Below, piece by piece: positions 3,001 to 47,747 of a stretch of DNA of 64,000 nucleotides. The notes beneath the pieces were generated by a model. That model was given only the letters and a program-made list of their open reading frames with translations. It was not told the origin of the DNA and did no database searches. The position numbers and the translations under genes were made by a program. Source of the DNA: a virus (lineage: Duplodnaviria > Caudoviricetes); the IMG/VR virus record IMGVR_UViG_3300032093_000005; one strand, 5' to 3'. Within the stretch, counting starts at the first letter, position 1, and each line of letters opens with the position of its first letter.

Positions 3001-4304
3001 AAAAATGCTGTTGTATCAGCAGCAGATTGATATACAATAGTTCCACCAGATCCACCCTTAAGATTCGTTGCGATTCCAGCGGTAGATGCATATCCTAATA
3101 AAGTTCCAGAAAAAGTTGTTGCAGTGACAACACCAGAAACTTTAACATCACCAACTACATCAAGTTTTGAAGTTGGATTTGTGCTTCCGATGCCAACAGA
3201 ACCAGAAACATAAGCACCACCAGTAACCTGAAGTCTTTGTGATGCGGTTCCTGTTGAGGTTCCAGAACCAATCAATACAGATCCATTAGTAAATGTAGAG
3301 ACACCGGTGACTTGAAGATCTGTGAACGTATTTGGTGCATTAGCAATAGCACTCTCGATCGTTGCAGTAGTTGTTGCATCAAGAGAAGCAATGTTTTGAA
3401 GTTGCCTTGCTGAACTAATGACTTGAGTGGCACCAATGTTTAATGATCCAACAGTACCAACACCAGAAACATTCAGTTGCGATACCGACGCAATACCACC
3501 TATAACACTTGTGGATATTCCTGATACAGTTGCAAATCCAGCAGTAGAAACAAAGTCTGCAAATGAAATTGTAATTGTTGCAATTCCAGCAGTTGCAGCT
3601 GCAGATACAGTTGATCCAACAAAATTTAACTGAGTAATACTATTGGCAGTGCCAATTATTGTTCCTTCATCACGAATTGTAAGACCAGTAATTGCGTTTG
3701 ATGGAGCAGCAGGAACCCAAGATGGAATACTACCAACTCCATTTGATTGAAGTATTGAACCTAAAGAACCATTTGCTAAAAATGCTGTTGTATCAGCAGC
3801 AGATTGATATGGAATATTACCAACAAGTCCACCTTTAAGATTCGTTGCGATTCCAGCGTTAGTTGCAAAAGTGGCAGTTGTAGCGTTACCACTAAATGTC
3901 GTTGCAGTGATAACACCAGAGACTTTAACGTCACCAACAACATCAAGTCTTGAGGTTGGTGATGTAGAGTTAATACCAAGATTTCCACTAGATGATAATA
4001 AGAATCTATCAGCGTCAGCAATTCTAAAATTAATGCCTGTTGGAGAATTTATAAAGAGACGACGATCAGCAGGTGATGAAATAAAGTTGTAATCACTATC
4101 AACAGTGCTATTGTTTAATGTAATTCCATTATATGTACTATAAACTTCACCAATTCTTATAAATCCATTTCCACCTTGAACATCTAATCTTTCTTGTGGA
4201 TTAGTAGATCCAACACCAATATTTCCTGCTGCAGTCGTGGTTAGAACTGTTGCACCTACACCTACTTCTAACCCACGTTTTACCCTAAAGTTCTGATCGG
4301 CCAA
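1..4304 (-). CDS. Tail fibre-like virion protein, 3' end runs off the window start
   Basis: Not in the ORF track. TTG start gives MADQNFRVKRGLEVGVGAT. Same frame verified at 1-60, 1261-1320 and 3850-4304. Repeated GNVGIGTxxPTSKLxVVGD motifs; shares modules with the neighbouring fibre gene. Confidence 0.8.
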   Translation of the reverse strand, partial: MADQNFRVKRGLEVGVGATVLTTTAAGNIGVGSTNPQERLDVQGGNGFIRIGEVYSTYNGITLNNSTVDSDYNFISSPADRRLFINSPTGINFRIADADRFLLSSSGNLGINSTSPTSRLDVVGDVKVSGVITATTFSGNATTATFATNAGIATNLKGGLVGNIPYQSAADTTAFLANGSLGSILQSNGVGSIPSWVPAAPSNAITGLTIRDEGTIIGTANSITQLNFVGSTVSAAATAGIATITISFADFVSTAGFATVSGISTSVIGGIASVSQLNVSGVGTVGSLNIGATQVISSARQLQNIASLDATTTATIESAIANAPNTFTDLQVTGVSTFTNGSVLIGSGTSTGTASQRLQVTGGAYVSGSVGIGSTNPTSKLDVVGDVKVSGVVTATTFSGTLLGYASTAGIATNLKGGSGGTIVYQSAADTTAFLANGSLGQVLQASGGTNPPSWVDAAPSNAITGLTIRDEGTIVSTANSFSQLNFVGNIVSVAGTGPSGIATITFADFVSTAGFATISGISTSVIGGIASVSQLNVSGVATIGVVTANNLYVAGVGTFLSSGLKIRNLADTFQYNITGGAITANRTLNLPVITATDTLAALNISQTFTNTQTFNGTLSAASLLSLSGNTSGTHLFGTNQTSGTLTFGGTSGTGTITFGRATTSQTTDIQAGATASGNTKTINLGTGGLSGSFTNINIGPTAGVGTVVINTTNNVGIGSLLPTSVLDVVGDAKFTGVVTATSFSGNATTATALQNARDFSITGNFVTATAISFNGTGNVALAATITPNSIGLGTYTSGDYVQSISGTANQITVTSGTGEGSTPTLSVPNQFTAPEDVTVTRDLQVNRNLNVNGNITIGGTAAVIFSQSLNVFDPDIVLGYRTDANGNDVSNDNTANHGGVAVASTEGTPLVQLFIAGIETNPATYKKIMWFKSGTFAGLGTDAWLSNYAVGIGSTQFPTGTRFASGAVQFTESDLAVVRNINASGITTSSRLTLNGANSATTGGGQIYLNGASGNRIDFNTNGAAAPTFTTRSAGTKIVLYPSVGASKVDYAFGINANVLWSSVEDSGSQFKWYAGTTQLADLKGSGELVIGSSTLTGTASQLLQVNSGGYFNGSVGIGTTNPTSKLHVVGDTLVTGVSTFQSDVYLGDNDKILLGDGNDLRIYHDGSNSFVEDSGTGNLYLQSNAAGIILQKTSGNENLAKFLTDGAVELYYDNSKEFETTGYGATVYGTLQTQQLNVSGIATASTLVATKSAYLGSDYTNSTFGNGWIVAAPASTTYYKIATLPETSSATFDHLTIEGVMGGWVKDAMTPFKMTFSNRDGFDYKYESYGSVKTEARIIGISTNNTTEIWAQHQSSQYTKLVYNITNSVQVTVVTNPTSTTTAPIGTTVFDSSSVTYTPRFIINESDNVGIGTASPTSKLHVVGDTLITGIV

Positions 4305-39295: not shown

Positions 39296-39445
39296 TGCTC
39301 AGGCTCGCCACCAATTCTTTGACTGGAAATTGGAAACCAGGCGGGAGAGAGTCCCATCCGCACCAACGTCATTTTAGAGATGCCGTAAACTCAAATAGGG
39401 TCATATTTGACTCCACCAGTATAAGTTTTAAGTCGTTCCAGGACT
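39296..39445 (-). ncRNA. manA RNA motif (or related wcaG RNA)
   Basis: TGGTGCGGATGGG..CCCGCCTGGTTTCCAATTTCCAGTCAAAGAATTGGTGGCGAGCCTG; recalled match to cyanophage Rfam motifs; pseudoknot pairings visible. Confidence 0.7.
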
Positions 39446-46601: not shown

Positions 46602-46674
46602 CTGGGGCGGCAGGGATCGAACCTGCGACCTAGATGTTAACAGCATCCCGCTACTACCGCTGAGCTACACCCCA
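46602..46674 (-). tRNA. tRNA-Asn(GTT)
   Basis: Canonical cloverleaf, G73. Confidence 0.93.
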
Positions 46675-46967
46675 TTATGTTGTTCGTGATGTATTTCTCT
46701 ATGGCAATTAGCACACACAAGAATACATTTATCTGCTTCTGCTTTTTGTTTTTCTATGGCAGCGGTGGTTCCAAGATTTTTTGTTTCTTTGGTAGTGGGA
46801 TCAAGATGATGAAACTCTAATGCAGAAATGCATTTATTGTAACCACATCTTTCACACTTACCACCTTTATATTCTACTAGAAGAAGTTTGTTTTGCTTGC
46901 GTCTTTTAATGACACTTGCTTTATTTGCTTCTCTACGATCAGCATAGGTTCTGGTTTCCTTAGTCAT
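46665..46967 (-). CDS. HNH endonuclease; stop codon inside tRNA-Asn
   Basis: GGKCERCGY..HHLDP..LVCANCHREIH; TATAAATA plus hairpin leader. Confidence 0.88.
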   Translation of the reverse strand: MTKETRTYADRREANKASVIKRRKQNKLLLVEYKGGKCERCGYNKCISALEFHHLDPTTKETKNLGTTAAIEKQKAEADKCILVCANCHREIHHEQHNGV

Positions 46968-47014: not shown

Positions 47015-47091
47015 TGCCGTTGTGGGGGAATCGAACCCCTACTTCTCCAACTCCCTTGTCGGGGTGTCCTGACCACTAGACTACCAACGGC
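47015..47091 (-). ncRNA. tRNA-like RNA or pseudo-tRNA with aberrant anticodon arm
   Basis: GCCGTTG/CAACGGC acceptor, Glu/Asp-type D arm, GGGG-TTCGATT-CCCC T arm, 5-nt loop GACAA. Confidence 0.65.
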
Positions 47092-47095
47092 TTGA

Positions 47096-47172
47096 TGGAG
47101 TAAGTGTGATATATCTCATAAGGATATAACAGGGACTTACCCTCTATCAGTTTATATATGGAGATAAACTCC
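47096..47172 (-). ncRNA. Unassigned structured RNA with anticodon-like loop CTTATGA
   Basis: AGTTTAT/ATAAACT, GGGTAAGT/ACTTACTC and TATATC/GATATA stems. Confidence 0.5.
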
Positions 47173-47175
47173 AAG

Positions 47176-47249
47176 CGGGTTAGGAGGGACTCGAACCCCC
47201 GACCAACAAATTAGAAGTTTGTGGCTCTATCCATCTGAGCTACTAACCC
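47176..47249 (-). tRNA. tRNA-Arg(TCT)
   Basis: Canonical cloverleaf. Confidence 0.95.
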
Positions 47250-47342
47250 AAGAGACCTCCTGGTTTGTGCATCGTTGAGAGGCATAGGAGGGGCGGGACT
47301 TATAGGAGGGTTGGAACCTCGCCTGCCCATGAGAATATTATA

Positions 47343-47747
47343 CTACTCCTTCGGGCAGTCGTCAACCCAGACTGCACAGATTCTCATTTCTCCACCAAGC
47401 AGTCTCTGTGCCTCACTGCCGTCTGGTGGTTTCTCAACATATTTTTGTTTATATTTCTTATCATAATCGGAAATAATCCGATCATACTCTGGTGTTACAG
47501 CATCAATCGCACGATCCACATCACGCTTAACTCTACGTTCTACTGCATGAGGATCTTGAAGAATAAGTTCATTAATAATAGTTTGCGGGAAATATTTTCT
47601 CTGAACCTCATCCAGTAAATCCCAAAGTCCATTTTCGGAAATTCCCGTGCATTGTGAGAGTGCTGCAATAAGACTTGATAATACTAAACCAACTATAAGC
47701 AGTTGTTTCTTATCTGTTTTCTTTTTACCAAAGTTAAAATTAAACAT
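47343..47747 (-). CDS. Hypothetical membrane-anchored protein (134 aa)
   Basis: ORF track. Confidence 0.7.
   Translation of the reverse strand: MFNFNFGKKKTDKKQLLIVGLVLSSLIAALSQCTGISENGLWDLLDEVQRKYFPQTIINELILQDPHAVERRVKRDVDRAIDAVTPEYDRIISDYDKKYKQKYVEKPPDGSEAQRLLGGEMRICAVWVDDCPKE

Follow-up and report, generated by a model that had tools for sequence, protein, structure and literature searches.

A conserved RNA hairpin lies within the tRNA operon of this cyanophage, in the 77-nt spacer between a tRNA-Arg gene and a tRNA-like gene. Its 55-nt core is best explained as a member of an RNA family of T4-like cyanophages (Kyanoviridae) that mostly occurs once per genome and for which no earlier description was found; the family may sit under a number in the IMG/VR csRNA catalogue (PMC10690425). 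At the level of sequence, comparison among relatives demonstrates that the RNA family exists, that selection acts on its fold as read from the tRNA strand, that many of its unpaired bases are conserved, and that the unit travels between different neighbours. Ever since species 1 and 2 of T4, phage tRNA clusters have been known to contain small RNAs other than tRNAs, and to our knowledge these have never been explained. The core is a well-supported new addition to this class of embedded small RNAs, and culturable isolates with their hosts make the family tractable for asking what such RNAs do. As a covariation-supported hairpin that is absent from Rfam and from genome annotations, it can be added to RNA catalogues at once. 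As we read the sequences, a large share of what looks like 'spacer' DNA in the tRNA arrays of cyanophages would be functional RNA.

The window (the whole stretch of DNA that was analysed, 64,000 nucleotides) is a fragment of a T4-like freshwater cyanophage. The closest named phage over the stretch is Synechococcus phage S-SRM01, with 89.6% identity. All tRNA genes and spacer features are carried on the minus strand. The whole operon is most likely driven by a sigma-70-type promoter called at 47337..47365 (TTGACG-17-TATAAT, 11/12). An abiF RNA motif (Rfam RF03085) is found at 47255..47291, scoring 49.3 bits where the gathering score is 37, just upstream of tRNA-Arg(UCU) at 47175..47249. This tRNA is called by both ARAGORN and Rfam, which place its end at 47175 and 47176, respectively. 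The spacer occupies 47172-47096 and is followed by the tRNA-like gene at 47016..47090, which has a non-canonical anticodon region; the Rfam tRNA model matches it with 30.3 bits (47090-47016), while ARAGORN makes no call on it. The distances given in the first-pass annotation, 3 nt after tRNA-Arg and 4 nt before the tRNA-like gene, are borne out, with 2-3 nt and 4-5 nt found here. Further along the operon there is an ORF for a 100-aa HNH homing endonuclease (46665..46967; phrog_2255, E 9e-26), whose stop codon lies 10 nt inside tRNA-Asn. At the matching junction S-SRM01 has neither the HNH ORF nor the tRNA-like gene, and its core abuts tRNA-Asn. Relative to S-SRM01, the window has the tRNA-like gene and the HNH gene inserted exactly after the core.

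Comparison of IMG/VR loci divides the spacer into three parts, and the conserved unit is 47148-47094 only. The first part, defined by comparison with relatives, is a weak tRNA-trailer hairpin at 47160..47172 (GGAG-loop-CUCC, -3.7 kcal/mol). Its stem is retained in some relatives, with a GAAG/CUUC variant and covarying extensions, and in others the hairpin is replaced by a TTGACA-N17-TAnnnT promoter. The second part is an A/U-rich single-stranded linker at 47149..47159 that lines up with the -10 region and the discriminator of those relatives that have a promoter. In the window this -10 is disabled, having CC where the relatives have TA, and from the aligned columns the linker is best explained as a decayed promoter -10 region. 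The 5' hairpin and the linker form a module that is separate from the core and can be replaced. The third part is the 55-nt core hairpin itself (47094..47148), delimited by a covariance model and by alignments. An extended helix running to the ACUCCA end of the spacer had been proposed earlier; that end is located at 47101-47096, as claimed, and a structured hairpin is indeed present, but the 77 nt do not form a single helix.

In the alignment-based fold, all on the minus strand, the core has an outer helix P1 of 8 bp (47142-47135 with 47105-47098) and an inner helix P2 of 6 bp (47128-47123 with 47115-47110), which closes an apical loop of 7 nt, CUUAUGA, at 47122-47116. This inner stem-loop is the one that the first-pass annotation had noticed, and its position and size are correct. 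Between P1 and P2 there is an internal loop, C-N-C opposite C, followed by 2 bp and a U-U mismatch. When folded as a single sequence, the element is only mildly better than its shuffles (z -2.1 for the 77 nt and z -2.0 for the 55 nt); that the fold is no product of chance is shown by comparison among relatives. The covariance model scores the core of the window at 88 bits and matched more than 100 related loci. Two alignments were used, one of 62 distinct cores aligned with MAFFT (A1), and one of 49 distinct sequences, mostly from a loop-free scan and from named isolates, fitted to the model (A2). In A1, 99.1% of cells are paired, with double changes in 5 of 16 pairs. In A2 about 99% are paired (99.1-99.2% across sets), and compensatory changes, for which the first-pass annotation had suggested looking, are present in 8 of the 16 pairs. 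The double-change count was reached by none of 500 shuffles, and slid controls were only 32-44% paired. RNAalifold, unaided, gives the identical fold plus four closing pairs in which a conserved 5' GAUAG meets a 3' CCAUC. Further compensatory pairs in P1 are found in the marine phages S-RIM8 and S-RIM32 and in S-SZBM1.

The strand on which selection acts can be read from the wobble pairs. U-G pairs at 25:35 (26 and 31 rows) and G-U pairs at 19:42 (14 and 12 rows) are frequent and would be A-C mismatches on the opposite strand. They are legal only on the tRNA strand, and the transcript is therefore the selected molecule. Many unpaired bases of the loops and bulges are also conserved in the core, and conservation in the internal loop is no lower than in the apical loop. 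Part of the conservation of the flanks is due to ascertainment, since the search patterns fixed some flank columns. Many of the sequences are closely related, and the identity of about 90% among cores may in part be due to a recent spread by recombination and not to constraint.

These relatives come from IMG/VR, which was scanned with the loop sequence and then with a flank-anchored pattern that leaves the loop free. Together the two scans gave about 190 loci, 184 of them with a profile match, and the family is present in more than 180 cyanophage contigs of IMG/VR. The core is also found in five named Kyanoviridae (S-SRM01, S-RIM8, S-CREM1, S-SZBM1 and S-RIM32), at one copy per complete genome, and the full 96.5-kb IMG/VR record of the window likewise has one copy. 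Two copies occur in 9 of 184 contig pieces. Locus L154 has two tandem cores 6 nt apart (3869-3985, plus strand), both with the loop CUGAUGA and with a compensatory G-C in P2, and downstream of them comes a short ORF rather than a tRNA. The core is unannotated in all five named isolate genomes, and the S-CREM1 paper gives only Rfam-derived RNAs (PMC9964418). Over 47094-47172 no Rfam 15 family matched, whether 10 kb were searched at E<=1 or 301 nt at E<=10, and likewise none for the core in S-SRM01 or at locus L028. A full-text search on words for the core sequence returned nothing relevant. A host origin was looked for in 185,579 bacterial and archaeal species genomes (one per species), where the only matches were one judged to be due to chance and two on tiny MAG contigs that look like phage.

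The neighbours of the core were counted in 134 distinct contexts. In 58 of these a sigma-70-like -10 ends 3-9 nt (mostly 7-8) before the first base of the core, in 49 the hairpin form lies upstream as it does in the window, and a single context has a T4-late-like TATAAATA there. The first base of the core in relatives lies either near +1 of a consensus sigma-70 promoter or directly behind a tRNA. There is no promoter call adjoining the core in the window; transcription of this copy probably runs in from the promoter at 47365. Where a tRNA precedes the core (84 contexts), it is tRNA-Arg(tct) in most cases. Downstream, an ARAGORN tRNA is found 0-6 nt after the core in 64 of the 134 contexts, and several more are tRNAs that were missed; they include Asn, Leu, Gly, Ala, Gln, Ser, Pro, Met and His-type tRNAs. 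The core of S-RIM32 starts 2 nt behind tRNA-Thr, with a tRNA-like RNA 6 nt beyond its end; tRNA-processing sites thus bracket it exactly. In 31 contexts the next element is a domain of about 95 nt that is closed by GUAGGA/UCCUAC, has an encoded CCA end and matches no Rfam family. In 10 contexts what follows is a conserved ORF of 65-67 aa, without a PHROG match, behind a CA-rich leader and a strong SD sequence.

The reading that we lean towards, by a small balance of probability, is that the core is cut out by tRNA punctuation as a small RNA, which would bind a specific partner. A discrete RNA product is favoured by the single copy, by the frequent presence of its own promoter with +1 at the first bases, by tRNA-processing sites at its ends, and by ends that are closed by helices together with conserved unpaired bases. 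In the window, one transcript from the promoter at 47365-47337 would carry the core together with the abiF motif and tRNA-Arg. RNase Z, which processes tRNA 3' ends, would then cut after tRNA-Arg, and an RNase P cut at the 5' end of the tRNA-like gene would close the spacer RNA; RNase E may also cleave in the A/U linker. In those relatives that have a promoter, the 5' end would be set directly by it. With a helix closing it at either end, the product would be expected to build up as a small stable RNA, in the way that RNAD and RNAC do in T4, where they follow tRNA-Arg(UCU). The core would probably act by sequence-specific protein binding through its conserved internal and apical loops. The first-pass annotation had seen the tRNA operon as a processing platform for non-canonical RNAs. 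This general idea is supported, in that a structured non-tRNA RNA does lie in the operon, along with the abiF motif and the tRNA-like RNA, and the tRNA-processing sites on its two sides would release it.

Some of the same observations fit equally well with a role in cis. The core never has a terminator of its own and is always immediately upstream of a same-strand gene, it starts at about +1 of promoters, and its downstream partners are of every kind, from tRNAs and another ncRNA to the 65-67-aa ORF with its CA-rich leader and SD. It could therefore be a leader or processing hairpin for the downstream RNA, namely a 5' stabiliser or a signal for RNase E or T7-type RNase III, with no role once it is cut off. 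RNase III sites in the early region of T7 are irregular helices of about 20 bp with an internal loop, and the core resembles them in geometry (about 12 bp, an internal loop and about 9 bp), while the A/U linker between the two hairpins resembles an RNase E site. Against such a role, a generic signal should recur, yet there is one copy per complete genome despite many promoters and up to dozens of tRNAs, and the conservation of loops and bulges far exceeds what a stabilising helix or RNase III needs. A leader in cis accounts for the invariable place just upstream of another gene but leaves the single copy and the loop conservation unexplained, and we consider it the main rival, less likely than the excised small RNA but far from negligible. 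The preferred reading has weaknesses of its own, in that the missing terminator and the constant downstream gene do not speak for it, the recombination spread mentioned above could account for part of the ~90% identity, and the parallel to T4 RNAD and RNAC is positional only.

That parallel is as follows. In T4, a non-tRNA RNA also comes directly after tRNA-Arg(UCU) in the tRNA cluster, the order being the homing endonuclease segB, tRNA-Arg(UCU), RNAD and RNAC, with the two RNAs ending the tRNA block. RNAD starts 1 nt after the tRNA and consists of a short hairpin and then a long irregular hairpin, and RNAC has a T-arm, as does the tRNA-like gene of the window. There are differences too, since RNAD and RNAC are 119 and 139 nt long as opposed to 55-77 nt for the cyanophage element, and many of the cyanophage copies have their own early-type promoter. 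The covariance model, run on the T4 region with filters off, gave no match on RNAD/RNAC (70908-71171), and Rfam does not include these two RNAs. The likeness is an analogy of place and architecture and does not imply membership in one family. The function of RNAD (species 2) and RNAC (species 1) is unknown (PMC3014915, PMC9697503).

A more specific version of the preferred reading would make the excised hairpin a trans-acting, protein-binding anti-defence decoy, expressed from one operon with a tRNA mimic that does not decode and with the abiF antitoxin motif, which is an orphan here. Taken as a whole this is a speculative and rather improbable proposal. An anti-defence role for the RNAs of the operon is conceivable because the abiF motif is, in bacteria, the RNA antitoxin of AbiF (PMC12373285). 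No AbiF gene is found near the motif in the window, and the phage copy may be a counter-defence decoy. The motif is shared with S-SRM01, and S-SZBM1 has a similar sequence between its core and tRNA-Ala. The abiF motif resembles the core in being a small hairpin RNA in the slot between promoter and tRNA of the same operon. It is unrelated to the core in sequence and fold, and in bacteria it is found next to a toxin gene, whereas the core was found in no bacterial genome save for the two phage-like scraps. If the decoy proposal were true, cyanophage tRNA arrays would double as counter-defence RNA islands, and there would be a testable function for the RNAs of the T4 RNAD/RNAC class, which have lacked an explanation for about 50 years.

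It is also necessary to consider that the block might matter as DNA. T4-type phages have composite cassettes of a stem-loop and an early promoter called PeSLs (Arbiol 2010, Comeau 2014; PMC2839356, PMC4122927), and the core could be a similar shuffling cassette, a recombination point at which tRNA and homing endonuclease modules are swapped, with the RNA structure being secondary. The conserved block does lie at junctions of different modules, HNH genes flank many of the loci, and the comparison with S-SRM01 puts the inserted tRNA-like gene and HNH gene exactly after it. The relatives also match the PeSL description in their upstream stem-loop and near-consensus sigma-70 promoter (TTGACA-N17-TAnnnT) at module boundaries of a plastic region, while the window retains the stem-loop and a decayed -10, the promoter being absent at the window copy and present in the 58 related contexts. 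However, PeSLs are multi-copy, with many per genome, and lack a conserved structured RNA downstream. The core is found once in each of the five complete genomes and in the full record of the window, is doubled only in the 9 of 184 pieces, and is a transcribed, covarying hairpin downstream of the promoter, a part that is missing from PeSLs. The compensatory and strand-specific G-U changes show selection on RNA, and a DNA-level cassette is accordingly highly improbable as the main explanation.

The first-pass annotation had interpreted the P2 stem-loop as a mimic of the tRNA-Ile(UAU) anticodon arm, or a decoy for an anticodon nuclease or modification enzyme. The commonest variant of the core does look like one, with a loop of seven bases of which the second is U and the sixth a purine. 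Its CUUAUGA fits the pattern Y32-U33-NNN-R37-N38, the variants at 'position 34' are still NAU, and counteracting anticodon nucleases is a known role of phage tRNA clusters. Loop statistics were taken from 49 distinct homologues that had been ascertained independently of the loop. Of these, 32 have CUUAUGA and 7 have CUGAUGA, while CUCAUGA and CUUAUAA occur in one each; these 7-nt loops make up 41 of the 49, and the remaining 8 (16%) have loops of 4-5 nt, mostly CUUGA. The short loop is carried by the marine isolates S-RIM8 and S-RIM32. 'Position 34' may thus be U, G, C or deleted, 'position 35' can be deleted as well, and the fixed features are CU...UGA and the closing C-G pair. The triplet varies and the loop shortens in 8 of 49, so that the 'anticodon' bases are the least constrained part; the loop variability that the first-pass annotation itself had named as counter-evidence is largely what is found. 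At 'position 37' there is a G in 47 of the 49, where tRNAs with NAU anticodons, which read codons starting with A, carry A37 (t6A). P2 has 6 bp plus a variable seventh pair instead of the 5 bp of an anticodon arm, it forms part of a longer helix with an internal loop of equal conservation, and RNAalifold pairs bases 1 and 6 of the loop. With stem length, loop length, position 37 and triplet conservation all differing from a tRNA anticodon stem-loop, mimicry is barely credible, and judged by this pattern of variation the core hairpin is not an anticodon mimic.

Several other identities for the spacer were tried and rejected. A cloverleaf or tRNA remnant of 77 nt with a GGAGU/ACUCC acceptor does not hold, as the 5' GGAG is replaced by promoters in relatives and the pairing is not conserved. 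An AGGG/CCCU mini-hairpin is broken by a variable middle C, and its G-to-U changes covary with the 3' strand instead. Coding (a 32-aa ORF at 47174-47076, with an AUG in the loop) is excluded by 2-nt indels in the loop, by unrelated downstream sequence and by the compensatory changes. The CUGAUGA variant recalls a hammerhead or a C-box, but most copies have U at the variant position and there is no Rfam match. Matches to Y-RNA/YrlA are weak only and driven by tRNA-Arg. A kink-turn was rejected by inspection only, the internal loop being C-N-C opposite C between U-A and G-C pairs, with no G-A tandem.

The odd anticodon region of the tRNA-like gene, a C/G stem of 3-4 bp with a GACAA loop, is nearly unchanged in marine S-RIM8 and estuarine S-SZBM1. 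Because it is kept in these two phages, the tRNA-like gene is regarded as a conserved non-decoding tRNA-like RNA and not a decayed gene. Besides the window, the loci concerned are L197 (2355-2420) and L199 (2427-2495). At L011, L052 and L063, ARAGORN calls the relatives of the tRNA-like gene as tRNA-His(AUG).

Some further features of these loci are worth recording. The ~95-nt domain takes the place of the tRNA-like gene of the window, as for example at L028 (1120-1208, minus strand) and at about 30 other loci. The 65-67-aa ORF starts with MTPYELRFEIF and is seen at L009 (1818-2018, plus strand) and at least 9 other loci. At L007 and L011 there are HNH genes just upstream of the unit of promoter and core. 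In S-CREM1, the pair of core and tRNA-Ala is directly followed by a gene for a 713-aa 'RNA binding protein' (L198, 2710-4851, plus strand), in which no Pfam domain was found at E<=0.01, and then by a MoxR ATPase gene. In the window itself, a full-length wcaG RNA motif (RF01761, 98 bits) lies at 39297-39394 on the minus strand, 8 kb from the spacer.
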